A model generated the notes under the pieces. That model had not been told where the DNA came from and searched no databases. It saw nothing but the letters and a program-made list of their open reading frames with translations. A program made the translations under genes and the position numbers. Positions 3,177-44,237 of a stretch of 64,000 bases of DNA are shown piece by piece. How positions within the stretch are numbered: the stretch's first letter is position 1; every line of letters begins with the position of its first letter. Source of the DNA: an uncultured Pseudomonadota bacterium (GTDB lineage: Bacteria; Pseudomonadota; Gammaproteobacteria; Ga0077536); contig CAIKBL010000025.1 in assembly GCA_903825645.1 (NCBI GenBank), positions 60,078 through 124,077 on the forward strand, in the 5' to 3' direction.

Positions 3177-3186
3177 AGTACGGTCA

Positions 3187-3648: not shown

Positions 3649-3673
3649 CGCACCACCCTCTGGAATGGCCTGC

Positions 3674-4689: not shown

Positions 4690-4691
4690 CG

Positions 4692-17195: not shown

Positions 17196-17230
17196 GTATC
17201 CTCCTCGAATGAATGTCATTCGGACGTCCC

Positions 17231-19645: not shown

Positions 19646-20203
19646 GCGTTTTCTCCGTCTCGGTTACGTTTCGCACCGAGTCAATTGCGCGACTTGGTTG
19701 CTTAAAATCAGGCCCGGGTTAAGGTCAAATCCGTCAGAGAAACGTACCCGTCGCACTCAGTATTAATTTTCCCGTAACGTCTACCTTGGGCCGCTTGCTT
19801 ACCCTCGTCCGGCAGAACCATGGCGAACCTGACTCCGTCACCGCGTTAGCGGCGGCACGCGCCAAAACTGTATTCTGTCCCCAAGCAACCCGGTAAGTCC
19901 CGTGGCAGCGCATTGCTGGTGAAAGATACCATGTCTCCCGCCCATTACTCTCGAACGCCGAGCGCTGAACACATTTTCAGCGCCTCATTTTTTTCTGCCC
20001 AACGCCGGATTGGGATCGCGCAGGCACTTTGCCAAAACGGACGGGTCGATTGAGGTTAGCCGCAGTCCCCGACGGCCGGGGCAAGTCACGTACCCACCCC
20101 TGACTGAGTCTTCGGGGCGTGGCGTTGAGATGGCAGGAGCCGGAATGATTATCGTCGTGGGCTCTAACCGAGGCAGAACGGAGCAAGAGACGCGATCAAG
20201 TCC

Positions 20204-23242: not shown

Positions 23243-23519
23243 GCCATTCGAAGACGATTCTGTTCCCCGTATTCCGCCGCTCTACCGCATGCAGTGGGAG
23301 GAAGCTCAGAACTGCCACGTGTTACTTTACCCGGAGGGTATGGTCAAACTCAGCGGGAGTGCTGGTGAAATTCTGAAACGCGTCGATGGCAAAACAAATA
23401 TCAGCGCCATTATCGCCAGTCTAGAAAAACAGTTCCCCGGGATCCCACTGGCCAGTGACGTCAACAATTTTTTGGAGGTTGCTTATGGCAACGGTTGGCT
23501 CCGCAACGTCATCGCCTAA
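23235..23519 (+). CDS. pqqD: PqqA-binding chaperone PqqD
   Basis: [35 protein letters not shown]. Confidence 0.95.
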
Positions 23520-24612
23520 CCAACCGCTGTGGCTCTTAGCAGAGCTGACGTACCGGTGCCCACTGCAGTGCCCCTACTGCTCGAACCCTCTCGATTTCGC
23601 ACGCCACAAGGAAGAACTCGGGACCGATGATTGGATCCGTGTACTGCGCGAGGCGCGTAAATTGGGTGCCGCTCAGCTGGGTTTTTCCGGTGGCGAGCCC
23701 CTGCTAAGACGCGATCTGGAGATGTTGATCGCGGAGGCCAGATCGCTCGGCTACTACACGAACCTGATTACCTCCGGCGTCGGCATGGATGAATCCCGCA
23801 TTGCCGCCTTTAAGGAAGCAGGCCTGGACCATATCCAGATCAGTTTTCAGGCGAGCGACGAAGAATTGAATAACGCTCTGGGCGGTACCGCGACCTTTCA
23901 GCACAAGTACGCGATGGCCCGTTTGGTCAAAAAATATGAATACCCGATGGTGCTCAACATCGTCATTCATCGCCAAAACATCGACCAGATTGAAGAAATC
24001 ATCAAGATGACGGTCGATTTGGAAGCCGATTACGTAGAACTGGCCAGTACGCAATACTACGGGTGGTCGAAATTGAATGAGGCCGCGCTACTGCCGACCC
24101 GAGAACAACTCGCGCGGGCTGAGCGTATCGCACATGAATATCAAGACCGCCTGAGAGACCGCATGCGCATCTTATATGTGGTGCCGGATTATTACGAAAG
24201 CCGACCTAAAGCCTGCATGAATGGCTGGGGCTCTGTTTTTCTCACCATTGCGCCCGATGGCGCCGCATTGCCCTGTCACGCCGCACGCGAACTACCTGGA
24301 CTATCATTTCCGAACGTTCGCGATCGCAGCATCGATTGGATATGGCACGATTCTCCCGCGTTCAACGCATTTCGGGGGGATACTTGGATGAAGGAACCCT
24401 GTCGAAGTTGCCCCGAAAAGGGTAAAGACTTTGGCGGTTGTCGCTGCCAAGCGTATCTGTTGACTGGCGATCCTGCCAATGCAGACCCGGTCTGCGACAA
24501 GTCCGCACATCACGCAGCCCTGGTCACACAGGTCGACGCCTTAACGGTGCCACGCGCGCAACCCTTGATTTTCCGCAATATACGAAATTCAAAAAATTAC
24601 ATCGCCATCTGA
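23485..24612 (+). CDS. pqqE: Radical SAM PqqA peptide cyclase PqqE
   Basis: [39 protein letters not shown] motif CRSC...GGCRCQA...DPVC. Confidence 0.97.
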
Positions 24613-28009: not shown

Positions 28010-28831
28010 TTGAGAAAACCGCGTTCATATGCCTCATTCCTGGGTCGTTTATGCCGAGACCTCTCATTTTTCATGGTCGTGGGGTGCACCGCGGCACCGG
28101 CGGCCGAGATCGTTCTTGTCTTCGTCGGCCCGACTGATTCCAGCGCCTACAAGGGCGCCCGCCAGGGGCTCGAAGAAGCGCAGGCTCAAGGTGAATTCCT
28201 GGGCCAACATTACACGCTCACCGTGCAGGCAACCTCTTCCCCTCACCCACTCCAAGCTACCGCAATTATCGCGGCAACAAACGAGGCGGGACTCTATCAA
28301 CTGGTTACAGTGAATCCGGGTATCGCGATCCTCAATGCCGAATTAAAAGACAATAAATTGCGCCGAACCTGCCGAGCGAACCTTCTCCATGTGCTCCCGA
28401 GTGCCGAAATGGAAGCCTCCGCGCTGGCGCAATGGCGCGCTGCGAATCCCCAGGCCAAGGACGTCGTGGCGCGAGCATGGCATCCGGCTTTTGAAAAGTA
28501 TGCCGGCATTGAACTGAACAAGCGTTATCAGCAGGCCTTCAATCAACCTATGGACGACACTGCATGGGCCGCTTGGGCCGCCGTTAAGTTGGTCTCTGAC
28601 ATGGTTGCGCGGGAGCAAAATGCGGATGGTACCGCCTTGTTGACAGCGCTCCGGGATCGCTTAGCCTTCGATGGCCAGAAAGGTGTCGATCTGAGTTTCA
28701 GACGCGACGGACAACTCCGCCAGCCAATACTCTTGGTCTCAGGAAACAAAGTCGTCGGCGAGGCACCGTTACATGGCGCCGGAGAATCAGCCGGGCTGGA
28801 TAGCCTAGGTCGTGTCGGGTGCGAAAAATGA
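28010..28831 (+). CDS. Periplasmic substrate-binding-like protein of the PQQ-dependent-catabolism-associated type
   Basis: GARQGLEE...GEFLGQHY, LLHVLPS, AWH..FEKY...LNKRY, AWAAWAAVKLV, FDGQKG..LSFR.DGQLRQPILL; start codon uncertain. Confidence 0.7.
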   Translation: MRKPRSYASFLGRLCRDLSFFMVVGCTAAPAAEIVLVFVGPTDSSAYKGARQGLEEAQAQGEFLGQHYTLTVQATSSPHPLQATAIIAATNEAGLYQLVTVNPGIAILNAELKDNKLRRTCRANLLHVLPSAEMEASALAQWRAANPQAKDVVARAWHPAFEKYAGIELNKRYQQAFNQPMDDTAWAAWAAVKLVSDMVAREQNADGTALLTALRDRLAFDGQKGVDLSFRRDGQLRQPILLVSGNKVVGEAPLHGAGESAGLDSLGRVGCEK

Positions 28832-28860
28832 CTTTATCTTTACCTCGGACACTAATTGAT

Positions 28861-29805
28861 ATGAAAAAAATTGCTTTCTCCTTGCTGCTGCTTGCCAGCT
28901 ACGGATCTGCAACGGCCGCTCCTCGGATCTTCGTGACGAACGAACTAGGCAATACCGTCAGCGTCATTGACAGCGCGACCAACACGGTCAGCGCCACTAT
29001 CCCAGTAGGGAAAAGACCGCGCGGCATCGGCGTGGCCCCCGACGGGCGCGAAATTTATGTAGCCATCAGTGGTGATAGTGTCATCGCCGTCATCGATGCT
29101 CATTCGCTTAAGGTCGTGCGGACTTTCTCCAGTGGTGAAGATCCGGAAACCTTTGCAGTTCACCCAAACGGCAATCTCTATATATCCAATGAGGAGAACG
29201 CAAAGGCGTCGGTCTACGATCCAAAAACAGGGAAGCTCCTCGCGGAAATAAAGGTCGGCATTGAGCCCGAAGGTGTCGCTATTTCGCCAGACGGATCCCG
29301 AGTAATCGTCACCAGCGAATCAACCAACATGCTTCACGTCATCGCTATACCTGAGCACAAAATCGTTGCCAATATCCTCGTTGGTGCGCGCCCTCGCTCT
29401 GCAAGTTTCAGCGCCGACGGCAAAACTGCCTATGCGACCTCAGAGATCAGCGGCGAAGTCAAAAAAATCAACGTCGCTTCCGGCAAAATAATCGGTCATA
29501 TGCCGCTTGCCGATGACAAGGCGAAACCGAAGGACATTATCCCCAGCCGCGATGGTCAGAGACTCTTCGTGGCCGGAGGACGCGCCAACCGTGTATTTGT
29601 ACTGGACGAAAAAACACTCGACATCATTCATCAGATCCCCGTAGGAAAGCGCGTCTGGGGTCTTGCACTCTCTCGTGACGGCAAGCAGCTTTACACCACC
29701 GATGGCGCCAGTGATCAGGTCTCGGTCATAGACGTCAGCGCCAGCAAGGTCACCGCAGTAATACCTGTCGGTAAAAGTCCTTGGGGAATTGCCATTTGCG
29801 ATTAA
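28861..29805 (+). CDS. YVTN beta-propeller repeat protein (PQQ-catabolism-associated type)
   Basis: Signal peptide, then repeats FVTNE..NTVSVID, IPVGKRPRGI, GEDPETF, VGIEPEGV, VGARPR, PVGKRVWG, VGKSPWGI. Confidence 0.88.
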   Translation: MKKIAFSLLLLASYGSATAAPRIFVTNELGNTVSVIDSATNTVSATIPVGKRPRGIGVAPDGREIYVAISGDSVIAVIDAHSLKVVRTFSSGEDPETFAVHPNGNLYISNEENAKASVYDPKTGKLLAEIKVGIEPEGVAISPDGSRVIVTSESTNMLHVIAIPEHKIVANILVGARPRSASFSADGKTAYATSEISGEVKKINVASGKIIGHMPLADDKAKPKDIIPSRDGQRLFVAGGRANRVFVLDEKTLDIIHQIPVGKRVWGLALSRDGKQLYTTDGASDQVSVIDVSASKVTAVIPVGKSPWGIAICD

Positions 29806-30323: not shown

Positions 30324-31736
30324 TTACAGTCCGTGCTGCTTCATACGATAGCGCATGGTCATACGGGTAATGCCCAACTGGCGGGCCGCCTCCGAAATGT
30401 TATTTCCGGTGCGTCGCAGGGCCTCTTCAAGCAGCAGCTTCTCGGCCTGTTCCAACGTCATACCGTAGAGACCGTCGAGATCCTTCCCTGCAGAAGTCGC
30501 TGCACCCACCGCCGGCAACAAAAGGGCGTCTGCGCTTAGCACGTCGCCATTGGCGAGAAGGAGCGCCCTTTCGATGACATGTCTAACTTCCCGCACATTG
30601 CCCGGCCACTCATAGTGGATTAATGCCGCCCGAGCAGAAACGTCCAGCGCGAAGTTCGAAAGCCCATACCGCCGTGCAATCTGTTGGCCAAAGTATTCGG
30701 CGAGCAGCAAAACATCCTGTAGACGTTCTCGCAGCGGTGGCAATTTTAGCGTCAACACATTCAGTCGAAAATAAAGATCTGCCCGCAACGTACCCTCCGC
30801 GACCATCCGCTCGACATCTCGGTTGGTCGCGGCGATGAACCAGGCCCGCACCGGGCGCTCTTGGCTACTTCCTACGCGACGCAGGGAGCGTCGCTCCAGA
30901 ACAGCGAGCAACTTTGCTTGCAACTCCAACGGAAGCTCGCCCACTTCATCAAGGAACACCACGCCCGTTTCTGCGGCTTCGATTAAGCCCGTACGCTCGC
31001 CCACCGCGTTGGTGAAGGCGCCTTTGGTGTGCCCAAATAGTTCGGCCTCGATCAGATCTTTCGGGAGACTCGCGCAGTCAACATGGACGAACGGTTGCGC
31101 GGCCCGGAAAGAATGCTGATGAAGGAGGCGTGCGGCGAGATCTTTACCCGTGCCTGTCTCCCCGACAATGAGCACTGTTGGGGGGGTGTTTTCCGCTCCG
31201 ATTTTCGCAATACGCGAAATTTGTGTCCGTACCGTCTGGGCCCCGGGGGACGTTCCAAGCAGGGCCACTTCCTCACCGCCGCTGGCCTCGCGGGTGCGCG
31301 AGTAGACGAGCTGCTGATTGATTTTCTGATTTAGAAGAACTTTATTGACATTAAGAAGGAGCTCGTCCAAATCAATCGGTTTTTTGAGGTAGTCAGCTGC
31401 GCCGAGTTTCATCGCCTGTACGGCGTCCTCTATTTCTCCATAGGCGCTGAGCGCAATAACCGGAAACTCGAATCCGAGATCGCGACGTATTCGTTGCAAA
31501 AAATCGAGCCCAGAGCCGTCAGGCAGTCGCATATCCAACAACATCAAATCTGGCTCTCTACGCTTTATTTCTACCTCCGCAGCGGATAACGTCGCCACAT
31601 TGGGGGCGTCGAAACCTGCCTTTTCAAGACGCCGACTGACGGCTCTGGCGAATAGTGCCTCGTCTTCGACAAGCAGAATTCGCGCCGTCACGACTTCCGG
31701 CCGCTCAGGGTCTGATTCAAAAGGAGGCACAGACAT
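30324..31736 (-). CDS. Sigma-54-dependent response regulator (NtrC/AtoC family)
   Basis: Receiver domain (VEDE, LLDMRLPDGSG, YLKKP), AAA+ GETGTGKD, GAFTNA, FLDEVGEL, DLYFRL, WPGNVRE, Fis HTH NISEAARQLGITR. Confidence 0.95.
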   Translation of the reverse strand: MSVPPFESDPERPEVVTARILLVEDEALFARAVSRRLEKAGFDAPNVATLSAAEVEIKRREPDLMLLDMRLPDGSGLDFLQRIRRDLGFEFPVIALSAYGEIEDAVQAMKLGAADYLKKPIDLDELLLNVNKVLLNQKINQQLVYSRTREASGGEEVALLGTSPGAQTVRTQISRIAKIGAENTPPTVLIVGETGTGKDLAARLLHQHSFRAAQPFVHVDCASLPKDLIEAELFGHTKGAFTNAVGERTGLIEAAETGVVFLDEVGELPLELQAKLLAVLERRSLRRVGSSQERPVRAWFIAATNRDVERMVAEGTLRADLYFRLNVLTLKLPPLRERLQDVLLLAEYFGQQIARRYGLSNFALDVSARAALIHYEWPGNVREVRHVIERALLLANGDVLSADALLLPAVGAATSAGKDLDGLYGMTLEQAEKLLLEEALRRTGNNISEAARQLGITRMTMRYRMKQHGL

Positions 31737-31738
31737 GA

Positions 31739-33193
31739 TCAACTTGCTTCTAAAACCGGGGCGATTAAAGTAATCAAGGTACCGCCTTTATCAGTGATCT
31801 GAAATTCCAAGTCCCAACCATGAGCCTTACATACTTTGAATGCCACCGGAATTCCGAGTCCGGTTCCGAAACGTTTAGTGGTCGGGCCGGGCGTCAGATC
31901 AGAGGGATTCGGAATGAACGGGATGCCGCCGGCGTGATCCTGAATGGTCAGCCGAACGTGATCGACCTCGAGGATAACCGCGAGTTCAAGCAAACCTCCC
32001 GGTGAAGACGCCTCAACCGCATTGAGCAACAATCCGTAAATAGCCTGCTCCATCAAATCGCGATCCACCGCGACCCGGACGGTCTCCATCCAAGGGCTAC
32101 AAAGGGTGCTCACCTCTTTCTCTTGTAATTTCGGCTTCAGGAGATCGAGGACGGTCGCGAATATCTCGGTCAATGTCCACGGAGCCATCCGCGGCCTAAG
32201 GGGATGTAGATATGAGACAAGCGCACTGACCCAGCGTTCCAGACGGTCGACAGCGTCAACAATATCGCCTGCCACGTCAGTCGCTTCCTCGAGGCTCTCT
32301 GCATATCCAACGAGTTGTGCATTAGCTCGAATGCTCGCGAGCGGATTTCGGATGTTGTGTGCCACAACCGGCACTAATGCGCCGAGTGCGGCCTGGCGTT
32401 CGGATTCGACCAGAGCTGCTCGACTGCCGGCCAGTTCCTGAGCCATGTGGTTGATACCATGGGCCAGATCTGCGAGTTCACTAACGCCATCTGCTGGCAA
32501 CCGGATATCTATTTCGCCCGCCGCAATCTGCTGAGTCCCCAGCATGATACTTTTCATCGGCCGGACGAATCCCCGCGCGAGGCGTGCGCGCGAAAATCCG
32601 ATCACGCACAGGGCAATAAACACAGGAAGAGGTACGATGACCGGCGCGTAGTGGGTCCAGCTATCGATCCGAACCCGCTGATGGTTCAACCCTTGATCGA
32701 TCAAGCCTTTGAGATCCTCAAAGGCGGCATCTAGTCCGCTCACAAAAATATTATGGGGATCTGATTCAACAACACCGCTGCCCCCCAATGAGCGAGAAGT
32801 CATCTTGCCGCCATGGGTATCGTTCAATGCCGTCTGCAATTGACCATAGGCCTCCTGCATGCTTTGGATAGCAAAGTCTTCTGCACGCGAGGCCGAGTTC
32901 TGTCGAAGGAGATTAAATTTTTCCTGTATATCAAGATAAAAATTTGTTGGTGAGCCGCCAGGCAACGTCCTCAGCCTTGACAGAGCCGCCTCCTGCATTT
33001 GTCGGAACACCAGCGTTCTAATTTCCTGCGCAGCATCTTCGAGTGTCTTCAGACGGAGGGTCTCGGTTGAGGTCTGTTGCCAAAAATAGGCCCACGTCCC
33101 GCCAATCGCGCCAGTTACGATCACCAGCATGAGCAGGGCAAGTTCGTGCCCCAGCAATAGGCGTCGTAAAGACGACGTGGGGGTGATACTCAG
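31739..33193 (-). CDS. HAMP-domain sensor histidine kinase
   Basis: Two TM segments, HAMP, H-box VAHNIRNPLASI, NAVEAS, TTK.FGTGLG; start uncertain (CTG 33193 or TTG 33157). Confidence 0.88.
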   Translation of the reverse strand: MSITPTSSLRRLLLGHELALLMLVIVTGAIGGTWAYFWQQTSTETLRLKTLEDAAQEIRTLVFRQMQEAALSRLRTLPGGSPTNFYLDIQEKFNLLRQNSASRAEDFAIQSMQEAYGQLQTALNDTHGGKMTSRSLGGSGVVESDPHNIFVSGLDAAFEDLKGLIDQGLNHQRVRIDSWTHYAPVIVPLPVFIALCVIGFSRARLARGFVRPMKSIMLGTQQIAAGEIDIRLPADGVSELADLAHGINHMAQELAGSRAALVESERQAALGALVPVVAHNIRNPLASIRANAQLVGYAESLEEATDVAGDIVDAVDRLERWVSALVSYLHPLRPRMAPWTLTEIFATVLDLLKPKLQEKEVSTLCSPWMETVRVAVDRDLMEQAIYGLLLNAVEASSPGGLLELAVILEVDHVRLTIQDHAGGIPFIPNPSDLTPGPTTKRFGTGLGIPVAFKVCKAHGWDLEFQITDKGGTLITLIAPVLEAS

Positions 33194-33723
33194 TTCCAGG
33201 GCAGCATGCGCCGAAGAAATCGATCCCGAGGATGGAAGGCATGACTGAGCACCCCTGCCAGATGTGTTGCCAGTAGACCCAGTAGCGCTAGCGAACCGAT
33301 GACATGTAACCGCACGAAGAACTCGCTCAGCGGAAGATTCAGGGTTCCCCACAGCGGTAATGGCAGGCCGAAAAAACTGGTGCCGTGGCCATTGAACTCT
33401 GACGAGAGATATCCCGTCAGTGGTTGCGTGAGCAAGAGCAAATAGAAAAGCGCGTGCACCGCGCGAGCCAGCGCGGCCTGCCAAGCTGTCACGCTAAGCG
33501 GCAATAGCGGGGGGGAATGGCCCAATCTCCAGCCTAATCGCCATAAACTCAGTATCAAGACGCTCGCACCAAGCGACTTATGGAGCGCAAAATTTTGACC
33601 CCGCAACGGGCCTTTGGGCAGGTCTACCATGTACCAACCCAACAGAAAGAGGGTTATCAAAAGACTGGCCGTAACCCAATGCAGGAGCATGGCAGTTTTT
33701 GTATAAGCTTGCGGGTTGCCCAT
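33190..33723 (-). CDS. Cytochrome b561
   Basis: LLHWVTA, HKSLG, HALFY, H...LLATHLAGVLSH and LRRMLP, with four TM helices. Confidence 0.92.
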   Translation of the reverse strand: MGNPQAYTKTAMLLHWVTASLLITLFLLGWYMVDLPKGPLRGQNFALHKSLGASVLILSLWRLGWRLGHSPPLLPLSVTAWQAALARAVHALFYLLLLTQPLTGYLSSEFNGHGTSFFGLPLPLWGTLNLPLSEFFVRLHVIGSLALLGLLATHLAGVLSHAFHPRDRFLRRMLPWN

Positions 33724-34515: not shown

Positions 34516-35615
34516 CTGCCAGCCCAGTCGCGGTTGCGCAGGCGCTGCGCGTCCTTTTCCCGCGCTCAGTAACGCGTGCAGCGCCGCTTCCTATCCGGGA
34601 ACTTTTGGGGCTCGGCGCAGATCGCCTGTCTCAGACTGGACTTCCCACGCTACCGCGCTCTCGAGCGGAGACCCGGTTTCCGATCGATGCTCGCCCGGGT
34701 TAGCACCTTCGCCGGTCGGCTACGACACCAAACTACTTCCTTGAGTAGTTCGAGCATCTAAACCGTCGTGCCTCGACAACCGTCTTACGATCCGAGGGAC
34801 CGAGCGAAGCCCCCCACGCGGCCATCAAGAAAAATCCGGCCGCCGCCCCCGCGTAAAATTCGGCAAGTCAGCGTGTCCGTGCCCCTGCACGTCCCTAAGG
34901 ATAGAACCGGCGCAAGCGCATGTTTTCGCCGGTTGCTCGATGTCTCGTAAGGTAGCTGAAAATAGCGCCCGGCAGCAGACCTGATTAAAGCGCTGTCGTC
35001 GAAATCAACTGGGCCCTTGCCTACCAAATAAAAGACAGACGCCTCGAGACCCAACGACACGACGCTCGCGTCACCCACATCGTCAAACTCGAAGTGCCGA
35101 CGCACTTGATTTGCGCAAGCCGTTTCCTTCCCTAAGATGGACATTACCACCCGCCACCTATCACCCGCCAGGTAACGACGGGCGCTGCGAGCAACACCGA
35201 AGACGGGCCCCTGCAACTTCGGCGCCGTGTATGGGACAGGAGAACTCGAGCCGCCGGCATTGCGTCTCTCTAATTTTGCAGACAACCTCAGTAACCTTGC
35301 CAAGACTTTTCCCGCCGTCGCTTGCCGCAACTTTTGTGCGCCCGACAACCAACACCAGTTGGTGGACGCGCAGATCATCAGCCTGCCGGGCGTTTGATGG
35401 CGAGCTTTTGATGCAATTACCGCGGTTTCTGGCTGAAAGGAGATTCCGCCTCACTGATACCTGCGATCCAACGACTTTTTGTGCCATTTCGATATAGATC
35501 ATTATCAGCGTTTGCCCTAAGGTTGCGGGCTTGCTGGGTTCCGAAGAGTGTGACGGGCCCGTTCAAACCAATCATGTAGCGAGGTCGACCCCAACGACCT
35601 ATAGAGGGGGCATGC

Positions 35616-37550
35616 GTGTTCAGTGTTGATATTGATACGGGCGGTACCATGACGGACACAATGGTCAGCGGAGGTGGCGAACCTTTGCTCATCAAAATGG
35701 AGTCAACACCGCACGATATGACCGTATCATTTATGCAGAGCTTGGAAGCTGCTGCCTCCGCCTTGGACTTCAAGTCGCTCGGCGATTTTCTAGACGAAGT
35801 TCAGTTGATTCGATGGTCTTCGACCATCACCTCGAATGTGCTCGCCCAACGCAGCGGCCCGAAACTCGGGTTGGTCGTCAGCAGCGGGCATGAATCGGAT
35901 CTGTACGCGAAGGAGGCGCATGAAGTGGCGACCGTCGTGCCCTCGCTGGTGCGCCCCGAACACATTGTGGGCCTGCCAGAAAACGCTGAGCGTGGCGAGA
36001 TTATCGCCAAACTTAAGCAACTAATCGACCAAGGGATCCGCCGTATCAACGTGTCGCTTCGAGGCGCTTTCCCGGACGGTCAGCGCGAGCAGGAAATTCT
36101 CGGAATCATCGCCGAACAATTTCCCGATCATTTTCTAGGATCGGTGCCGGCCGTTGCCGGCAGTGAAATGCTGCTGCGCCCAGATGATATGTCCCGCACG
36201 TTCTTCGCACTGATTAATTCCTATGTACACAATAGTCTCGCGAATTCATTGTTCAAGGCGGAAGATGTACTCAAGATTGAACATCGATGGAAAGGAGATA
36301 TTCTTGTCGGACACTTGAGCGGCGGTGTCGCCCGTATCGGGAAAACAAAGGCAGTGGACACGATAGAGTCCGGGCCATTGTTCGGGACACACGCATCGGC
36401 TCATGTGGCGCAACAACGAGAATTACCGCACGTGCTAGCCATTGATATAGGCGGCACCACGGGCAAGGCGAGTGTGGTGCGAGATGGGCGTGTCACCATG
36501 CAATCCGAAGGCGCTTTCTTCGGTATCCCGGTACGCATGCCCATGGCGGTCCTGCGCTCAAATGCGCTGGGCGGGGGTAGCGTCGCGCGGGTAAAGGATG
36601 GCGTCATAACCCTGGGCCCTGACAGCATGGGCGCCGCCCCCGGTCCCGCCTGCTACGGACTAGGCGGGACACAAGCCACGTTAACCGACGCCTTGGTTGT
36701 GCTCGGTCTGGTGTCGCCAACAGCATTTCTTAATGGCCGTCGCGTGCTGAAGACGGAGATTGCCGAACACGCCATTCAACGCCATGTCGCCGCCGTACTC
36801 GGCGGCTCGCCCGCCGAGGCCGCGGCGGATATCTACGGGCGTGCGGTTGCCATGATGGCGGATCTGGCCCGGGAGACCTTAGGTGTCGCCGACAACCTCG
36901 AACAGAGCCCCCCCGTTCTATTCGCCTATGGTGGAAACGGCCCCCTCTTCGCCACCGCCATCGCAGATATTCTCGAAATAGCCGAAGTCAGATTCTTTGC
37001 GCTGGGCACTGTGTTTAGCGCGTATGGCTCGGCTATCGCTGATGTCCTCCACGTTTATGAACGTGCATTGGTAACTCCTCACAAGCAAGCCGAAATAGAG
37101 AGCGGAGGGATAGGGTTACGTGTTCAGGCCCAACGAGATTTACGTGGAGAGGGTTTCCCGCCCGACGAGGCTAACTACTTGTGGGAAACGGAGGACGGCA
37201 CCGGACGTCGACGCACCGTCCAGGGAGCACTTGATACCGCCGAGCTTGCTGCTGACTTCGATGCTCAGTTGCTGCGCCTCACGGCCCGTTATTCCATCTC
37301 GAAACAAAATATTCCAGCGCAGACGGCCGCAACCGGCGCACTATCTCATGCGAATGCCCGTCCTTCTGTCTTGGGTAAAAACGGCCATTTGCCTGTATAC
37401 GATCACGCCGCGCTCATCGGTCGTACGCTTGTGGGTCCACTCGTCGTTGACGGAGGAACCTTTACCTGGTACGTCGGCAGCGGCTGGCAAATCGCAGTCG
37501 ATTTATGGGGCGATGCCGCGCTCCACCGAACATCCGGGAAAGCGAAATAA
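35616..37550 (+). CDS. apcA: Acetophenone carboxylase-like subunit ApcA (hydantoinase A/oxoprolinase family)
   Basis: VDIDTGGTMTD, TPHDMTVSF, IRWSSTIT, SGP, DIGGTT, GPDSMGAAPGPACY; N-terminus resembles Aromatoleum Apc1 as recalled. Confidence 0.8.
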   Translation: MFSVDIDTGGTMTDTMVSGGGEPLLIKMESTPHDMTVSFMQSLEAAASALDFKSLGDFLDEVQLIRWSSTITSNVLAQRSGPKLGLVVSSGHESDLYAKEAHEVATVVPSLVRPEHIVGLPENAERGEIIAKLKQLIDQGIRRINVSLRGAFPDGQREQEILGIIAEQFPDHFLGSVPAVAGSEMLLRPDDMSRTFFALINSYVHNSLANSLFKAEDVLKIEHRWKGDILVGHLSGGVARIGKTKAVDTIESGPLFGTHASAHVAQQRELPHVLAIDIGGTTGKASVVRDGRVTMQSEGAFFGIPVRMPMAVLRSNALGGGSVARVKDGVITLGPDSMGAAPGPACYGLGGTQATLTDALVVLGLVSPTAFLNGRRVLKTEIAEHAIQRHVAAVLGGSPAEAAADIYGRAVAMMADLARETLGVADNLEQSPPVLFAYGGNGPLFATAIADILEIAEVRFFALGTVFSAYGSAIADVLHVYERALVTPHKQAEIESGGIGLRVQAQRDLRGEGFPPDEANYLWETEDGTGRRRTVQGALDTAELAADFDAQLLRLTARYSISKQNIPAQTAATGALSHANARPSVLGKNGHLPVYDHAALIGRTLVGPLVVDGGTFTWYVGSGWQIAVDLWGDAALHRTSGKAK

Positions 37551-37553
37551 GTC

Positions 37554-37949
37554 ATGTCCACACAAAATAAAATTGGGGTGCTCAACATCGCTGAGAACCT
37601 TCAACTCGATTTGGATACCGATACCTGGGTCTGCGGGCGCTGCAGCTGCGTCATCGGTAGCGCACACGAAAATGTCAAACATAGCCTCTTGGTGGGGGAG
37701 CGGGATCCAACTGAAGTTCATCCACCCTTGATCATGGGCCAACCGTACTCTTTCGCGCCGAATCCGGAATGGGTCCGCATTCTGGAATTTTATTGTCCGA
37801 GCTGCGGGGTCCAGATAGAAACTGAATATCTCCCCCCGGGACATCCGATCACCTACACCACGGAGATCGACCTGGCGGCCCTTAAAAACCGCCTAAACCA
37901 AGGCGAGATGGTCATCGAAAACGGACATCTGAAGGTGGTAACCACATGA
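37554..37949 (+). CDS. apcB: Acetophenone carboxylase-like small subunit ApcB (acetone carboxylase gamma family)
   Basis: WVCGRC and YSFAPNPEWVRILEFYCPSCGVQIETEYLPPGHPI (two CxxC motifs). Confidence 0.85.
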   Translation: MSTQNKIGVLNIAENLQLDLDTDTWVCGRCSCVIGSAHENVKHSLLVGERDPTEVHPPLIMGQPYSFAPNPEWVRILEFYCPSCGVQIETEYLPPGHPITYTTEIDLAALKNRLNQGEMVIENGHLKVVTT

Positions 37950-40084
37950 GAAGCGTCGATATCGATGTCGGCGGAACGTTCACCGATCTCGTCCTCACCT
38001 ACGACGATCGGCGGGTCATCGCGAAAGCACCGACGACCCCCTATGATCTTTCCGTATGTTTCATGAACGTTCTGGAAGATGGCGCCGAGCAGCTTGGTTA
38101 CAGCACAGAAGAGCTCCTGCCGGACATTGAGGTAGTTCGTTATTCGACCACCGTAGCAATGAACCGGCTCATTGAGCGCAAGGGTCCAAGACTCGGCCTC
38201 ATGGCGACCGAAGGTCACGAAGATGCCATTCTGATTGGGCGAGGGGCCCAATGGGTCGACGGACTGAGAATTGGCGAGCGGCGCAATCTTGCCGCTCAAC
38301 ACAAGCCGACCCCGTTGATTTCCAGACGTATGATCGTAGGGCTTAAGGAGCGTGTGGATTCGACCGGCTGTATTCTGCGAGAACTCGTAGAGGACGATGT
38401 TCGGGAAAAACTTCGCTATCTTATTGACAACGGCGCACGTGCAATCGCGGTATCACTGTTATGGTCTTTCGCAAATCCTGCACACGAACGTCGGGTTCGG
38501 GAAATAATCCGTGAAGAATACAAGGGTTATCATGTCGGTTATCTCCCCGTCGTCCTCTCCCATGAGGTCGTTGGCAAAGTAGGGGAATACGAGAGAAGCA
38601 TGACCGCAATCCTTGATGCCTATCTCCAACGCTCCATCAAACTCGAGATGGAGGCGACGTGGGACCAGCTGCGGGAACGCGGCTACACCGGCAGCTTTCT
38701 CCTCACGCACAACACCGGTGGTAGTGCGGAAATGTTTAAGACGACGGCGTCCCGAACTTATAACGGAGGACCTATCGCAGGTCTCATGGGCTCCTATCAT
38801 ATCGGCCGCACGCTCGGTTACAAAAATGTCATTGCGAGTGACGTCGGAGGCACCAGCTTTGACGTCGGAATGGTCGTTGATGCGGGCGTCCGGAGCTACG
38901 AATTTCGCCCCATCATTGACCGATGGATGGTCGGAATCACCATGCTGCAAACCACCACCATGGGCGCGGGCGGTGGTTCAATTGCGCGTTACAACACGCT
39001 CCTGAACCGTCTGGAAGTCGGCCCACATAGTGCCGGGGCGATGCCCGGGCCCGCCTGTTACGACCTCGGCGGCACTGAGCCGACCGTCACGGATGCTGAC
39101 GTAGTTCTGGGCTACATCTCGCCGGATACCTATTTCGGCGGACGCATGCCACTCAGCCGGGATAAAGCCTATGCGGCGATTCGCCAGAAAGTAGCTGAGC
39201 CGCTCGGCATTTCGGTCGACGAGGCGGCAGCGATGATTCGGAACATCGTTGAGGAAAACATGGCTTCGGCCATTAAACGCGAAGTTCATTTGCGGGGCTA
39301 CTATCCAGAAGACTTCGTGCTCTTTGCCTTCGGCGGCGGTGGTCCGACGCACGTCGCCGGCTATCGGGCCGAAATTCCGGTCGCCGTCATTTTCCCTCAA
39401 GCGCCGGTCTTTTGTGCCCTAGGCAGTTCGGTCATGGATATCATGCATGTTTACGAAGTATCGCGACGCATGACGTTTATGGAGGCCATCACGGGAAAAT
39501 TCTCTACTGACTACGAGAAATTTAACGGTGCGGTTCAGAACTTGATCGAGCAGGCTAAAATAGACCTCGCGGCGGAAGGCCTTGCTGTCGACACTGCTAT
39601 TTTCCAGGTCGAGCTGGACATGCTCTATGGTGGCCAAGTCCACGTAAAAAGAGTTTCTTCGCCTCACCTGCGCATCGAAAGCGAAGTTCAAATGCGAGAA
39701 ATTTATGAGGCCTTCGAAAAAGAGTTCTCCGAAGCGTTCAGTCCACACGTCGTTAATAAACCGGGTGGCGTGCATCTCGAGAATATTATTCTAAAAGCGA
39801 CGGTGCCAACCGAAAAACTGGAACTACCGATGAGACCACTCGGATCAGCCGACGCCAGTAGTGCATTAACCGGCTTCCGCGAAGCATATTGGCCCGAACT
39901 GAAAGTCCGCCAGGACACCTCCGTCTATCGTTTTGAGGATATGCAACCCGGGCATCACATCGTGGGCCCGGTCATCGTTGACGCGGAGTTCACCACGTTA
40001 ATCGTACCGCCGGGTCAATTTTTTCATATTGATGCACGCGGCCTCGGCATTCTGGAGTATTCGAAGAAAGGATCGCGAAAGTGA
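37946..40084 (+). CDS. apcC: Acetophenone carboxylase-like subunit ApcC (hydantoinase A/oxoprolinase family)
   Basis: DIDVGGTFTD, RYSTTVA.NRL, EGHEDAILIGRGAQW.DG...ERRN, DVGGTSFD, GAGGGS, PGPACY, FGGGG. Confidence 0.85.
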   Translation: MRSVDIDVGGTFTDLVLTYDDRRVIAKAPTTPYDLSVCFMNVLEDGAEQLGYSTEELLPDIEVVRYSTTVAMNRLIERKGPRLGLMATEGHEDAILIGRGAQWVDGLRIGERRNLAAQHKPTPLISRRMIVGLKERVDSTGCILRELVEDDVREKLRYLIDNGARAIAVSLLWSFANPAHERRVREIIREEYKGYHVGYLPVVLSHEVVGKVGEYERSMTAILDAYLQRSIKLEMEATWDQLRERGYTGSFLLTHNTGGSAEMFKTTASRTYNGGPIAGLMGSYHIGRTLGYKNVIASDVGGTSFDVGMVVDAGVRSYEFRPIIDRWMVGITMLQTTTMGAGGGSIARYNTLLNRLEVGPHSAGAMPGPACYDLGGTEPTVTDADVVLGYISPDTYFGGRMPLSRDKAYAAIRQKVAEPLGISVDEAAAMIRNIVEENMASAIKREVHLRGYYPEDFVLFAFGGGGPTHVAGYRAEIPVAVIFPQAPVFCALGSSVMDIMHVYEVSRRMTFMEAITGKFSTDYEKFNGAVQNLIEQAKIDLAAEGLAVDTAIFQVELDMLYGGQVHVKRVSSPHLRIESEVQMREIYEAFEKEFSEAFSPHVVNKPGGVHLENIILKATVPTEKLELPMRPLGSADASSALTGFREAYWPELKVRQDTSVYRFEDMQPGHHIVGPVIVDAEFTTLIVPPGQFFHIDARGLGILEYSKKGSRK

Positions 40085-42132
40085 GTTACCCCACCGTAGA
40101 AGAAAAACTTGCGTCGCTAAAAATCACACCGGCGACGCCGCACGAACTACGATGCATGGAAAAAGTATCGCGCGGTTCTTATGAAATTGCCGTTCAGCGT
40201 ACGGCTGATATCCTAGACGAGGGCTACGAAATATTTATGCGCTCTTCGCGCAGTTCTATGGGCGTGGCTGGTGATTCTATAGTCGCCATGTTCAGTGCAC
40301 ACGGCGATCTCGTGAATGCGTCTGCCGGCACTTACCTTCACGCCATCATCCCGCCTATTGTCATCAAGTATATTTTGAAAAAATACCGGGAAAATCCCGG
40401 TATAAACGATGGCGATATTTTCTACACGAATGATGCCCTTTACGGAGGAATCCATAACCCCGATCAAGTCGCGATCATGCCAGTTTTCCATGCTGGGGAG
40501 CTTGTCGCTTGGACCGCGGCCTTGTCCCACACGACCGAAACGGGCGCTTGCGAGCCCGGCGGGATGCCGTTATCTGCTACTTCACGTTTTGAAGAAGGGA
40601 TGAATCTTCCTCCGATGAAAATCGGTCAAAATTTCCGCATCAATAATGACATTATCGAGTTATTTTCAGCGTTCGGGATTCGGGCGGAGGCGAATGTCAC
40701 GGTTGATCTGAAAGCACGCTGTACAACGGCGGATCGGGTCCGTACTCGTTTGGTTGAGATGTGTGAGCGGGAGGGCGCTGATTTTGTGACGGGCTTGTTT
40801 CGACGGATGCTGATAGAAGCCGAAACAGGCGCACGTAAGCGTCTCATGACATGGCCGGACGGTGTTTATCGTTGTGTGACATTCAGTGATGCGGCGGGGC
40901 TAAAACGTGGCCTTATTCGCAACTGCTTTCTAACCATGACTAAACGAGCCGATCACCTCACGATAGATTTCACGGGGACAAGTCCCGAAAACCTGTCCAG
41001 CTACAACGCACACCCACAAGCCGTGATTGGGCATCTGGCTAATTACATTTATGAGTATGTGTTCCATGACCTGCCAATTTCGAGTGCAACGTTTGCACCG
41101 CTTGACTTTATATTCCCAGAAGCAAGTTGCTTGTCCCCAACGCCTCGCGCAGCTACCAGCAACGCGGTAATGATTTGCACGGGTGCTATGAGCGCCATTG
41201 CGAACTGCATTTCGCGGGCCCGTTTCCCGAGTGAAGATTGGCACCAAACCACCGCTTCCATGGGTAACGGCGGTAATGCGCCGGTCATAGCCGGCACTTC
41301 CCAATGGCAAATGCCGTTCGCCGACATGATCGCCTATACGATCAATACTGAAGGCCAGGGTGCTCGTTGTACGCATGACGGGATGGATGCCTACGGATTC
41401 CCGTGGTGCGCTTTTGGTCGCGCGCCTGATGTTGAGAGTATGGAGAACGAATTCCCGATGCTGGTGCCTTTTAGCCAGCACTGGCCGGACTCCGGCGGAC
41501 ACGGAAAATTTCGTGGCGGGTGCGGCACCACTCAGTTTTGGTCAGTCCATCATGTGCCCATGCTGTTTTTCCTCTCGATCGCTGACAACAGTTCATTGCA
41601 AACGCCGCAGCCGCTGTTCGGCGGCTACGCGCCACCGACAGTTCCCGGTATCACGATAAAAGACACGAAGGTTACCGAGCTGCTTGCCCGACTTGACGAC
41701 GGTACACTTGATTTTCATGCGCTTATCCGCGGTGACTTTGGCGAGGTGCAAACGGAGCCTAATGGGCGCTCTGCCAGACCGGTAGAAGCTGATAAGACAA
41801 TCTCCGTCCTAATGTCTACTGGCGGCGCAGGCTATGGCGATCCACTCGATCGAGATCCCGCTCTCGTCCAAAAAGATTTGCTAGCCGGTTTGTGCTCAGC
41901 ATGGAGCGCAAGAGAGATCTATCAGGTTGTTTGGGATCCCGTTCGCGAACGGGTGGATGTGCCCGCGACTGAATCGGCGCGGGAGGCGACCCGGAAAAGA
42001 AGACTCGCCAGAGGCAAGCCTTATGTGGAGTTTGAGAAAGAATGGTCCAAGCGAAAACCGCCCGAAGAGATCATGAATCTCTATGGCTCTTGGCCCGATG
42101 CAAAACCACTTGCGCCAGTATTCCGACCCTAG
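40081..42132 (+). CDS. apcD: Acetophenone carboxylase-like subunit ApcD (hydantoinase B family)
   Basis: PTVEEKL, GTYLHAIIPP, metal-site motifs GGIHNPDQ and HTTETG, DLKARCTTADRVRTR, GHGKFRGG, GGAGYGDPLDRDP, YGSWPDAK. Confidence 0.88.
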   Translation: MSYPTVEEKLASLKITPATPHELRCMEKVSRGSYEIAVQRTADILDEGYEIFMRSSRSSMGVAGDSIVAMFSAHGDLVNASAGTYLHAIIPPIVIKYILKKYRENPGINDGDIFYTNDALYGGIHNPDQVAIMPVFHAGELVAWTAALSHTTETGACEPGGMPLSATSRFEEGMNLPPMKIGQNFRINNDIIELFSAFGIRAEANVTVDLKARCTTADRVRTRLVEMCEREGADFVTGLFRRMLIEAETGARKRLMTWPDGVYRCVTFSDAAGLKRGLIRNCFLTMTKRADHLTIDFTGTSPENLSSYNAHPQAVIGHLANYIYEYVFHDLPISSATFAPLDFIFPEASCLSPTPRAATSNAVMICTGAMSAIANCISRARFPSEDWHQTTASMGNGGNAPVIAGTSQWQMPFADMIAYTINTEGQGARCTHDGMDAYGFPWCAFGRAPDVESMENEFPMLVPFSQHWPDSGGHGKFRGGCGTTQFWSVHHVPMLFFLSIADNSSLQTPQPLFGGYAPPTVPGITIKDTKVTELLARLDDGTLDFHALIRGDFGEVQTEPNGRSARPVEADKTISVLMSTGGAGYGDPLDRDPALVQKDLLAGLCSAWSAREIYQVVWDPVRERVDVPATESAREATRKRRLARGKPYVEFEKEWSKRKPPEEIMNLYGSWPDAKPLAPVFRP

Positions 42133-42151
42133 TGCTGAATGGATCTGACAG

Positions 42152-42877
42152 ATGATTAATCGCCCACCCCGGCGGCGGCTCCAGGCCCTTGCGCAAGGAC
42201 GAGGTGCACAGGAGCGCCTTGCCGCACTACTGGCCTTTGATGCGGCCGCGCAGATTTCGGCGCGCCCTCTAGAGGAATTTCATCGAGATCCAACCCAGCT
42301 AGCAAATGGGCTCAGCGAATTGCAGCGCGCGCTAGGTAGCGACGTCATCTGCTGCGCTTTGGCTGATAACTTCGAAAAGGATTCGGTCGGGAGTTCAACT
42401 TTTTCCCTAGAGGCGATACTCGTACCAGGGACACGGGGCGCAGCGAGTCTCGAGGCCTGCCGACGCCTGAGAGCGACCGCAGGAGAATCATGCGTGTTAC
42501 TGGCGGGTCTCACCGGACCGGCCACGCTAGCGGCGCAATTCGCCACAGACCTTTCCACCGCCGGCGAGGTGTTCACCTCACTCGCGAAAGCGTTCTGTGC
42601 TGCCGGCGCCGATTTAATTCTCGTGTTCGATGCCGCGCTACCGACGGATCTCGGTCAATGGGCTGACACGCTCAAAACTGCCGGTAATATTGCGCGTTTT
42701 CACCGCGCACTCGCCATGCAGTGGGACTCTGCGGCACCACTGCCACAACCCGCAAAAATTCCTCTGTTTGCACCATCAAAAGGCCTAGCCGGGATCACCG
42801 TCACGACCGAAATCGCTGCTCCAGATGTCAGTCTCGAACATCTAAAAGCCTGGATAACCGCAGTAAGCGCCGAATAG
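42152..42877 (+). CDS. ApcE-like accessory protein (uroporphyrinogen-decarboxylase-like fold, inferred)
   Basis: Sits between apcD and the CoA ligase; AAQISARPLEEF..DPTQLANGL.ELQRALG.D.I, GLTGPATLAAQ, F..AGADLILV. Confidence 0.55.
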   Translation: MINRPPRRRLQALAQGRGAQERLAALLAFDAAAQISARPLEEFHRDPTQLANGLSELQRALGSDVICCALADNFEKDSVGSSTFSLEAILVPGTRGAASLEACRRLRATAGESCVLLAGLTGPATLAAQFATDLSTAGEVFTSLAKAFCAAGADLILVFDAALPTDLGQWADTLKTAGNIARFHRALAMQWDSAAPLPQPAKIPLFAPSKGLAGITVTTEIAAPDVSLEHLKAWITAVSAE

Positions 42878-42914
42878 GTACTGTTTTTCCCGTACATTGG
42901 AGAGTGAGGCTTTC

Positions 42915-44237
42915 ATGACCGGTTCCTATTGGAATGCCGCTGCAGAAACTGCAACGCCTGAAGTTGTTCGCGAACTTCATTTTCGCAAGCTCAAAGCGCA
43001 GATTGCGTATCTCTGGAACTTCTCGCCCTTTTACCGCGAAAAGCTGGAACACGCGGATCTAGTGCCTAATAGGCTTCGCTCACTCGACGATCTTTCGCTT
43101 TTTCCGTTTACCGAAAAACATGAATTGCGCGAGTCACAGCTTGCCGAGCCCCCCTTGGGCAGACACCGCGCATGCCCCGCTGACGCCGTGCGGCGAATTT
43201 ATTCCACCAGCGGTACAACCGGACGACCGACCTACATAGGCCTTACGGCACAGGATATTAACGGGTGGAAGGAAGCCGCCCTACGTGCTTTCTGGACGGC
43301 CGGACTCAGGCCTGGCGCCATTGTGCCGATAGTCGTGTCTCCGTTTGTCGTGGCCGCCTCCTATGCTGACGCATTTGAGACCATCGGCACCTGTATTCCC
43401 GTTGGGGTCAATATGACTGACCGACTAATCGATGCTTTTCGCTTTGCAAAAGCGGATAGTCTTTTGTGTACTTCTTCCTATCCACTCCATTTTGCAGCGG
43501 CCCTCATTCAACGCGGAATCGATCCCCGTACCCTTGGTCTGAAACGAATTTTCGCTGGCGGAGAGCCTGGCGCGTCAATCCCCTCGGTCCGTAAACAGAT
43601 AGAAGATTGCTTTGATTGTCGGATCCTTGAGGTATCGGGCAATGGTGATTACAGCGGAATGGCTTGGGCAGAATGTGAGCATCGACGCGGAATGCACTTT
43701 GTGGCACAGGGATTAATCCATCCGGAACTAATCGATCCGGAAAGTGGCAACTCGATTGATATCGAAGCAGGCGCGCAAGGTGAACTGGTCTGTACCAGCC
43801 TTGACCGGGAATGTATTCCTTTACTGCGTTTTCGGACCCGCGATCATGTCATCGTGACACAGACCGACTGCGCTTGCGGCAGAACAGGATTTGGCATCCG
43901 GATCATCGGCAGAACGGACGACATGCTCATTATACGTGGCGTCAACGTCTATCCGTCCGCCGTACGGGATGTCATCGCGAGCTTTTCTCCAGAAACCAAT
44001 GGCATGATGGAAATCCAGTTATCGGCCGCCCCGCCGCAAGGCTGGGAGCCTCCGCTACAAATCAAGGTGGAAACGACGGGACAAAACGACGTGGAAAATG
44101 TCCGGTTGAAGGCAGCCATTGAGACATCCCTCAGGGATAAATTGATTTTTCGTGCGGAAATAACTCTGGTACCGGTCGGCACGCTCCCACGATATGAGTA
44201 CAAGGCAAAATTGGTGAAAAAGTGCTACGAGGAATAG
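42915..44237 (+). CDS. Phenylacetate-CoA ligase family protein (benzoylacetate-CoA ligase Bal-like)
   Basis: SPFYREK, FPFTEK.ELR, STSGTTGRPT, GGEPG, PLLRFRTRD, GRTDDMLIIRGVNVYPS, LPR..YKAK. Confidence 0.88.
   Translation: MTGSYWNAAAETATPEVVRELHFRKLKAQIAYLWNFSPFYREKLEHADLVPNRLRSLDDLSLFPFTEKHELRESQLAEPPLGRHRACPADAVRRIYSTSGTTGRPTYIGLTAQDINGWKEAALRAFWTAGLRPGAIVPIVVSPFVVAASYADAFETIGTCIPVGVNMTDRLIDAFRFAKADSLLCTSSYPLHFAAALIQRGIDPRTLGLKRIFAGGEPGASIPSVRKQIEDCFDCRILEVSGNGDYSGMAWAECEHRRGMHFVAQGLIHPELIDPESGNSIDIEAGAQGELVCTSLDRECIPLLRFRTRDHVIVTQTDCACGRTGFGIRIIGRTDDMLIIRGVNVYPSAVRDVIASFSPETNGMMEIQLSAAPPQGWEPPLQIKVETTGQNDVENVRLKAAIETSLRDKLIFRAEITLVPVGTLPRYEYKAKLVKKCYEE

Follow-up and report, generated by a model that had tools for sequence, protein, structure and literature searches.

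An Apc-type carboxylase operon, probably acting on acetophenone or a similar aryl ketone, in an uncultured gammaproteobacterium

The analysed window, a stretch of 64,000 nucleotides from an uncultured gammaproteobacterium (GTDB Ga0077536; contig CAIKBL010000025.1), contains six tightly linked, co-directional open reading frames on the forward strand at 35616-44237. They encode proteins of 644, 131, 712, 683, 241 and 446 amino acids, have no internal stops, and are joined by one 3-nt gap, two 4-nt overlaps and two 19-nt gaps. The closest solved structures for the first four products are the four chains of the Apc core (PDB 5L9W). Pfam matches along the operon comprise Hydantoinase_A (two of the six genes), Acetone_carb_G, Hydantoinase_B, a weak URO-D match and AMP-binding_C_2. 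An earlier note had described six linked apc-like genes, including an accessory protein, and had predicted that automatic annotation would call them hydantoinases. The intact frames and the matches to 5L9W and 9FOU bear out this description, the accessory protein is the epsilon subunit, and the Pfam families and many NCBI names do read hydantoinase or oxoprolinase.

Table 1. Genes and the putative regulatory site of the apc-like operon.
Feature	Position	Strand	Evidence
Operator-like inverted repeat, degenerate copy, upstream of apcA	35479..35494	+	pattern from relatives
apcA, alpha-prime ATPase/kinase (HyuA family)	35616..37550	+	5L9W_b 564 bits; NF042960 668 bits, cut-off 1250
apcB, small four-cysteine zinc subunit (gamma)	37554..37949	+	5L9W_C 130 bits; PF08882
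apcC, alpha ATPase/kinase subunit	37946..40084	+	5L9W_B 1073 bits; NF042975 1166, cut-off 1500
apcD, metal-binding beta subunit (HyuB family)	40081..42132	+	5L9W_A 950 bits; NF042976 1040, cut-off 1500
apcE, epsilon, URO-D/MtaA-like barrel	42152..42877	+	AlphaFold model, fold match to 9FOU ApcE
PaaK-like CoA ligase, bal position	42897..44237	+	TIGR02155 213 bits, cut-off 646; likely start ATG 42915

The gene order recurs in relatives and is thus not a product of chance: A-B-C precedes D in 24 of 25 close loci with sufficient upstream DNA, and epsilon is present in 26 of 27 with sufficient downstream DNA. Gene neighbours were counted by tblastn; clustering of open reading frames was dropped, as antisense frames won in high-GC loci. 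In all six genes, each compared with two or three relatives, dN is far below dS, a measure taken over deep splits that a recent loss of function could escape.

In the beta-subunit tree, whose outgroup is thin (one or two long branches), ApcD falls in the Apc branch with a support of 100/100, and the Acr types form a 100/100 branch of their own. An earlier quick tree had grouped ApcD with Apc at a support of 99; one locus with a frameshifted beta gene (L070) was removed after it. The phylogeny that the earlier note had proposed as a check therefore places the beta subunit with Apc, not with Acr or other family members in the tree. Within the Apc branch, ApcD belongs to a subclade (100/99) apart from the Aromatoleum type and common to uncultured Gammaproteobacteria and aerobic Actinomycetota; the test rejects a clade of gammaproteobacterial and Aromatoleum-type sequences that leaves out those from Actinomycetota (p 5e-49). 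Beta-subunit identity is about 59-60% to the Aromatoleum type and 29-33% to the Acr type, with R. aetherivorans Acr replaced by the operons of R. jostii, Rhodococcus sp. 008, Neorhizobium and a Halorientalis plasmid. Scores against NCBIfam NF042960 and NF042974-NF042977 all lie below the equivalog cut-offs (668/1250, 155/250, 1166/1500, 1040/1500 and 101/450); the cut-off is a tight one, passed by just 2 of 71 proteins taken from the Aromatoleum-side search. Two proteins, P0366 and P0378, exceed the ApcD cut-off yet deviate from 5L9W at pocket positions; P0338, P0372 and P0376 are closer stand-ins.

The metal tetrad of ApcD (D65/H125/D128/H150) aligns with the Apc tetrad, and the HNPD and HTTE motifs, which the earlier note had read as intact, are both present. 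Mapped by eye on low-identity alignments, 15 of 16 positions taken from the pockets of Acx and caprolactamase agree with 5L9W_A, so that the mapping onto the Apc structure, also suggested in that note, favours Apc; six Acr-type sequences differ at at least 9 of the 16. All six positions from the acetone carboxylase product pocket likewise equal Apc, with V363 and A400 replacing two Acx tryptophans. Fixed differences near the site are A444 for V and S56/S58/A80/A82/S149 for C/C/G/C/V. In ApcC, five of seven proposed pocket residues are those of Apc; the remaining two are changed from L81 to M72 and from F281 to Y272, positions that hold L (26/26) and F (28/28) in Aromatoleum-type loci. ATP motifs are found in both alpha subunits, ApcA residues E251, D277 and K284 align with Apc E248, D274 and K281, and cysteines C27, C30, C81 and C84 of ApcB are conserved. 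ApcE is shortened (241 against about 300 amino acids), and its AlphaFold model (pLDDT 96) has ApcE of 9FOU as its top fold match (TM 0.83, E 5e-18). An Aromatoleum-type epsilon profile gives it 99.5 bits, an Acr-type profile 5.8; no longer protein containing epsilon was found among 7996 candidates, which is weak evidence. Since the metal ligands and 15 of 16 pocket residues equal those of Apc, an aryl ketone is the likely substrate, as judged from sequence.

As a whole, the operon is an ordinary member of the described, widespread Apc family. It combines the A-E gene order, the beta placement, an Apc-type epsilon, the ATP motifs, the gamma cysteines and the metal tetrad. Its beta and epsilon subunits both lie outside the Acr branch, it departs from the three-gene alpha-beta-gamma layout and the tryptophan-narrowed pocket of canonical Acx, and its gamma subunit and more than two genes set it apart from hydantoinases, oxoprolinases and lactamases. 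The Xcc, Acv and Hpe hydroxyacetophenone carboxylases are biotin-dependent, built from a biotin carboxylase and a carrier subunit and assisted by a kinase and a phosphatase as separate proteins; the six genes show no match to families of this kind. The order alpha-prime, gamma, alpha, beta, epsilon is a published criterion for Apc (PMC5214803), and the ligase-linked epsilon branch has been assigned to probable acetophenone carboxylases (PMC13677872).

The sixth gene, called bal in the earlier note, encodes a PaaK-like CoA ligase at the place of bal. It is 32% identical to the host's own PaaK and 34-38% to the ligases of Aromatoleum-type operons, and lies outside the Aromatoleum-type Bal clade in two trees, where it is placed among non-apc ligases with moderate support values (93/90 and 84/87). 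A joint clade with Aromatoleum-type Bal was not rejected (AU test, p 0.13), A. aromaticum Bal being represented in the comparison by metagenome loci L109-L133. Non-apc members of this ligase subfamily occur in other pathways, one of them beside a thiolase, a thioesterase, a flavin monooxygenase and a cupin. A CoA ligase follows directly 3' in 21 of 27 close loci and a thiolase is nearby in 8 of 27; in actinobacterial loci with full context, a CoA ligase is present in 20 of 20 and a thiolase in 17 of 20.

Scans for regulatory elements gave little: promoter and terminator predictions were near those of shuffled sequence (8 vs 6.0 and 17 vs 11.3), and upstream repeats were chance-like. The operator-like site listed in Table 1 is putative in function; its pattern, picked after viewing the alignment, occurs in 6 of 14 loci with a GAF/PucR (CdaR-like) regulator, in 0 of 10 without one, and here in degenerate form, against a background of 0.002 per 260 nt. 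A sigma54 response regulator/kinase pair lies on the opposite strand at 30324-33484, 2.1 kb upstream of the operon. Across 74 related loci, however, kinase matches beside apc number zero; the earlier note had seen no dedicated two-component regulator adjacent to the operon.

The host genome (99.5% complete, 90 contigs) places the operon in a probably aerobic setting. Genes for boxB, boxC, a boxR-like regulator and a benzoate-CoA ligase all exceed their cut-offs; no boxA does (best E 6e-19), and the box cluster holds a flavodoxin gene in its place. HGD-D/Bcr matches number 0. An EbdA-type gene was not found in the genome: the four PF00384 matches are FdhF, NasA-like, NuoG and one unclassified protein, and an EbdA-like query returned only partial matches of 25-27%. 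The operon thus stands apart from ebd and ped, as had been noted, and the host, with no match to an EbdA-type molybdoenzyme or a benzoyl-CoA reductase, does not fit the anaerobic ethylbenzene pathway (ebd-ped-apc-bal-bcr). From boxB, boxC, the benzoate-CoA ligase and the many oxygenases, together with the lack of ebdA or bcr matches, we conclude that ketone degradation in this host likely runs aerobically through benzoyl-CoA and the Box pathway. The gene content fits the oxygenase-rich profile of Ga0077536 (PMC8371827), and A. aromaticum uses apc-bal aerobically also (PMC4729919).

The earlier note had suggested that PQQ- or SDR-dependent alcohol oxidation might supply the ketone. The window's pqqB, pqqC and pqqE exceed their cut-offs, in keeping with the PQQ-producing host proposed earlier; of 74 loci, just 3 have a gene for a PQQ dehydrogenase no farther than 10 kb from apc. 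A search for a conserved Ped-like dehydrogenase came up empty, and the SDRs beside related operons match host SDRs mostly at 30-48%. Four soil loci carry a Rieske oxygenase and a zinc dehydrogenase just upstream of apcA. The assembly contains no 16S gene. The host family comprises uncultured, widespread Gammaproteobacteria of freshwater, sea and soil and is rich in ketone-carboxylase/hydantoinase paralogs, with as many as 14 gamma-subunit matches in one genome, of Apc type, Acr type and a conserved beta-gamma fusion type. Twelve genomes of the family have a beta subunit of the Apc branch; all 12 carry boxB, one a Bcr-type gene and two an EbdA-type gene. Our literature search, which did not cover subscription papers, found no report of an assay of this Apc subclade or of apc in the host family.

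We favour, at a probability of about 0.68, an operon whose five-subunit carboxylase and CoA ligase turn acetophenone or another simple aryl alkyl ketone into 3-oxo-3-arylpropionyl-CoA, which would be cleaved to benzoyl-CoA. The beta placement, the Apc-type epsilon and the pocket all support the ATP-dependent, Apc-type carboxylase that the earlier note had proposed, with acetophenone or a related aryl methyl ketone as its substrate; its wording of a CO2-fixing route applies to a catabolic carboxylation, not to autotrophy. By the model of the Aromatoleum enzyme, ApcC would phosphorylate the ketone enol and ApcA bicarbonate, with 2 ATP converted to 2 ADP overall and epsilon needed for turnover; by analogy with acetone carboxylase, the C-C bond would be made at the ApcD metal site. 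Gene context suggests that the ligase would activate the unstable beta-keto acid and that a thiolase on contig C17 (96233-97417, the best host match to apc-linked thiolases of relatives, 44-66%) would release acetyl-CoA and aroyl-CoA, the latter likely burned via the host's oxygen-dependent Box pathway. With 22 flavin monooxygenase matches in the genome, the host could instead degrade acetophenone by a Baeyer-Villiger route, as R. aetherivorans does.

The same chemistry might serve a methyl ketone that the Aromatoleum enzyme refuses, be it ring-substituted, heteroaryl or bicyclic, with the swapped ligase fitted to the product. The separate beta subclade, the clade-wide substitutions near both the ApcC and ApcD sites, the different PaaK-like subfamily of the ligase with its members in other pathways, a PRK12582-like third ligase in 19 of 20 actinobacterial loci and the oxygenase-dehydrogenase pair of the soil loci all point this way. 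We nevertheless consider it unlikely, given the near-identity of the metal-site pocket to Apc, the unrejected monophyly with Bal and the constant presence of boxB, which takes benzoyl-CoA, among carriers, although boxB occurs in 30 of 36 genomes family-wide. An operon that is intact but little expressed, its activator gene gone, is improbable. Of 23 close loci, 13 have the CdaR-like regulator upstream in divergent orientation, neither it nor a remnant was found upstream of the operon or in the host genome, the 1.1 kb upstream of apcA holds no convincing gene and the operator-like site is degenerate; yet no frame is broken, the regulator is also absent from 10 of 23 close loci, and ApcD shows no lengthened terminal branch (0.067, its sister having 0.084).

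Two further readings concern the enzyme class. Acr of Rhodococcus has an identical five-gene layout and acts on acetone to 2-hexanone, not on acetophenone (PMC13677872), which also contradicts the earlier statement that acetone carboxylases have only three subunits. We give little credence to an aliphatic ketone carboxylase of this kind here, because of the low beta identity, the separate tree branches, the Apc-type epsilon and pocket, the absence of a CoA-transferase pair beside the operon and the two Acr-type operons that the host already holds on contigs C9 and C3. An ATP-dependent lactamase or hydantoinase would agree with the Pfam families, many NCBI names and a metal tetrad shared with caprolactamase, but is very improbable: a hydantoinase consists of two subunits, with no gamma, alpha-prime or epsilon among them (PMC5214803), and the beta subunit scores 950 bits on Apc and 122 on caprolactamase.

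The preferred reading, an aryl ketone carboxylase, means that the operon likely lets its uncultured host degrade aromatic ketones by adding bicarbonate first. Only one Apc has been characterised so far, and a 2026 paper describes a look-alike operon that acts on acetone (PMC13677872); substrate calls therefore need tests of placement, pocket and epsilon. With these observations the Apc branch reaches into a family of uncultured, oxygenase-rich Gammaproteobacteria where Apc accompanies Box rather than ebd/bcr, which argues against apc as a marker of anaerobic ethylbenzene degradation. More speculatively, and with low confidence, the sister subclade may have its own aryl-ketone substrate, a short epsilon, a replaced ligase and a tie to aerobic benzoyl-CoA epoxidation, in a family where ATP-dependent ketone carboxylases have become numerous by multiplication; if so, ketone carboxylation would be an overlooked heterotrophic route of CO2 uptake in oxic waters. 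The subclade also occurs in cultured Pseudonocardia and Blastococcus strains, which makes the substrate question directly testable.

Compared to ApcABCDE and Bal of Aromatoleum aromaticum EbN1 (5L9W, 9FOU), the operon has the same gene order, A-D subunit sizes, ATP motifs, zinc cysteines, metal tetrad, epsilon fold and nearly all mapped pocket residues, and a PaaK-like ligase in sixth place. It differs in its separate subclade, an epsilon about 60 amino acids shorter, a ligase of a neighbouring subfamily, the lack of a linked ebd-ped or two-component pair, and a host with Box genes and no Bcr match. The Apc-like operons of Actinomycetota (Pseudonocardia, Blastococcus, Modestobacter, Sphaerisporangium; PMC13677872, supplementary tables 5 and 7) share the subclade, with 68-72% beta identity, a short epsilon and a CoA ligase and thiolase nearby, but their ligase lies upstream or is of the PRK12582 type and their regulators are of GntR or AraC type. 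Acr of R. aetherivorans (PMC13677872) is alike in its five-gene layout and differs in branch, pocket and epsilon, with about 30% beta identity as measured on Acr-type stand-ins. AcxABC (5M45, 5SVB) and CapAB (6YRA) belong to the same superfamily, with the same metal site and ATP fold; they have three and two subunits, respectively, and the Acx pocket is narrowed by three tryptophans, two of them replaced by small residues here.

The six-gene acetophenone-carboxylase-like operon proposed in the earlier note is borne out as six intact, co-directional ORFs (35616-44237) with overlapping or near-touching junctions, a GC content of 53-57% similar to that of the flanking DNA, and dN far below dS in all six genes. 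The window (G000:C25:60078-124077) belongs to an assembly of 4.13 Mb in 90 contigs, rated 99.5% complete. ORFs 1-4 find by far their best match among solved proteins in the chains of the Aromatoleum aromaticum acetophenone carboxylase (Apc) core (5L9W), the beta subunit scoring 950 bits on 5L9W versus 168 on acetone carboxylase and 122 on caprolactamase. The predicted fold of ORF 5, the epsilon subunit (pLDDT 96), matches the ApcE structure 9FOU best (TM 0.83), followed by MtaA and URO-D barrels. ORF 6 encodes a PaaK-like CoA ligase; the true paaK of the assembly lies within a paa operon on contig C27, apart from the apc-linked ligase. Conservation extends to the metal tetrad D65/H125/D128/H150, the cysteines of gamma and E251/D277/K284 of ApcA. 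The parts of the mechanism are present and conserved. By analogy with Apc, ketone and bicarbonate would each be activated at a kinase site of its own, at a cost of two ATP, epsilon would be needed and the product would be a beta-keto acid; by analogy with canonical acetone carboxylase (Acx), the C-C bond would be made at the beta metal site.

The number of subunits had been taken as an argument against acetone. This is no longer safe, as PMC13677872 shows a five-gene operon of Rhodococcus aetherivorans that carboxylates acetone and longer aliphatic ketones, not acetophenone; beta-subunit trees (24 and 47 rows) were therefore built. With a thin, long-branched outgroup, they place the window beta subunit inside the Apc branch (100/100) and the plasmid operons of the five-subunit acetone carboxylase (Acr) type in another (100/100). 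Within the Apc branch, it falls into a subclade (100/99) with uncultured Gammaproteobacteria and aerobic Actinomycetota, apart from the Aromatoleum type, and a topology forcing the gammaproteobacterial beta rows together with that type was rejected. Against a profile built from 10 Aromatoleum-type sequences (one a wrong-frame ORF), the window epsilon reaches 99.5 bits; a profile of four Acr-type sequences gives it 5.8. All five subunits miss the NCBIfam Apc cut-offs, which are tight. Ten actinobacterial species among the compared loci are also listed by PMC13677872 (supplementary tables 5 and 7), several of them with a 'phenylacetate-CoA ligase'.

Mapping the pockets onto the Apc structure, as suggested in the earlier note, points the same way. 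Metal-site cavity positions, listed for acetone carboxylase and caprolactamase in PMC8453981, were transferred to the window beta subunit by eye on an alignment; so mapped, 15 of 16 are identical to 5L9W_A (exception A444 for V442), and two of the three Acx tryptophans are V363 and A400, as in Apc. Acr-type beta subunits differ at no fewer than nine mapped positions. In the ApcC kinase pocket, as given in PMC5214803, five of seven residues are identical to Apc, while M72 and Y272 replace an L and an F that are constant in Aromatoleum-type loci (26/26 and 28/28). An aryl ketone is therefore the likely substrate, and the specificity may be shifted.

The sixth gene, named bal in the earlier note, encodes a PaaK-like ligase that two trees put, with moderate support, outside the clade of benzoylacetate-CoA ligase (Bal) type, although an AU test did not reject its monophyly with Bal-type ligases. 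It shares 34-38% identity with ligases of Aromatoleum-type operons but up to 44% with plasmid ligases outside apc operons. Of the 74 loci fetched, 36 are close ones (beta identity at least 73%). The ligase follows epsilon in 21 of the 27 of these with enough DNA; 8 of the 27 have a thiolase in the vicinity, and 13 of 23 have a GAF/PucR regulator upstream. In the actinobacterial loci whose context is complete, a CoA ligase is found in 20/20 and a thiolase in 17/20. The window's assembly has a homologue of this thiolase on contig C17 and no match to the regulator; a putative, degenerate operator-like site, its pattern picked after the fact, is kept at 35479-35494.

In L022, L023, L026 and L028 (about 100-5500), genes for a TonB receptor, a Rieske oxygenase alpha subunit and a zinc alcohol dehydrogenase lie directly 5' of apcA, a candidate oxygenase-dehydrogenase-carboxylase feeder route, and epsilon has no ligase behind it. 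A Haloterrigena plasmid operon (L099:1437-9028) places epsilon, annotated as URO-D family, between alpha-prime and gamma, which hints at a pairing of epsilon with alpha-prime. Records titled Klebsiella pneumoniae or Enterobacteriaceae (L006, L037, L041, L060) also bear these operons; the L006 title looks wrong, since its coordinates are those of G031, a genome of host family f1.

Features in the window and elsewhere in its assembly (G000; C, contig; L, fetched locus)
Feature	Coordinates	Remark
PQQ biosynthesis genes at two sites (pqqB; pqqC, pqqD, pqqE), plus accessory genes of PQQ catabolism	window 11060-11983, 22481-24609, 28010-29805	
Type IV pilus minor-pilin-like cluster with 1143-aa PilY1-like gene, then IS256-like transposase fragments	window 13357-21358	putative names, assigned by reading, not from family scan
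Acr-type operon	G000:C9:7087-14611 (L075)	beta and epsilon group with Acr type
Acr-type operon	G000:C3, L076:6803-14528	beta and epsilon group with Acr type
HyuA gene, then beta-gamma fusion	G000:C44:1-4452 (L077); also family loci L195-L200	
box cluster with flavodoxin	G000:C40, L097:5369-11667	
Second boxB	G000:C32	2.5 kb contig
Four-gene soluble di-iron monooxygenase (alpha, beta, coupling, reductase)	G000:C13:48900-52868	closest solved relative methane monooxygenase
Phenol-hydroxylase-like cluster with extradiol dioxygenase-like genes	G000:C43:3512-9213	

The assembly holds two more five-gene operons, on C9 and C3 (alpha-prime/gamma/alpha/beta/epsilon), whose beta and epsilon subunits fall with acetone/aliphatic ketone carboxylases of the Acr type. 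The beta-gamma fusion, a single ORF of 760 aa, consists of Hydantoinase_B and, at its C-terminus, an Acetone_carb_G domain with four cysteines; its HQQD metal motif is near-invariant. The fusion occurs in 6/6 family loci fetched and, to judge by eye from open frames that match, in roughly 25 of the 36 family genomes (G001-G036). All but one of these 36 genomes have beta-type matches, often 10-19 each with at most 19 candidates scored, and gamma matches occur in 34 (up to 14 per genome, in G022); in other families of the class, 5 of 24 genomes have one beta-type match each. Judged from these matches, the family has undergone a large expansion of hydantoinase/ketone-carboxylase beta paralogs and gamma subunits.

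The benzoyl-CoA pathway genes, which the earlier note wished to see located, are of the aerobic (Box) type: two boxB genes exceed the cut-off, one clustered with boxC, a boxR-like regulator, benzoate-CoA ligase and flavodoxin. No boxA was found in the assembly, the box cluster included. The reported lack of ebd beside the operon extends to the whole assembly, which has no match to EbdA-type (ethylbenzene dehydrogenase) or Bcr-type (benzoyl-CoA reductase) genes. It encodes nine ring-hydroxylating alpha subunits, 22 flavin monooxygenase matches, two soluble di-iron monooxygenase clusters and five PQQ alcohol dehydrogenases over cut-off; speculatively, the C13 monooxygenase could be a source of secondary alcohols and ketones for the Acr-type operons. 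Of the 36 family genomes searched, 12 encode a beta subunit of the Apc branch (at 77% identity or more in 10, about 60% in 2), with boxB in 12/12, an EbdA-type gene in 2/12 and Bcr-type genes in 1/12; boxB is present in 30/36 family genomes regardless of Apc, and kin are not independent. EbdA-like molybdoenzymes were observed in two family genomes that also have Apc-branch operons (L190, G021:C60; L191, G022:C56); the top solved match of L190 is ethylbenzene dehydrogenase 2IVF, and no ped-like gene was seen adjoining it. Aerobic use of apc-bal is not new, since A. aromaticum, according to PMC4729919, uses these genes with oxygen too.
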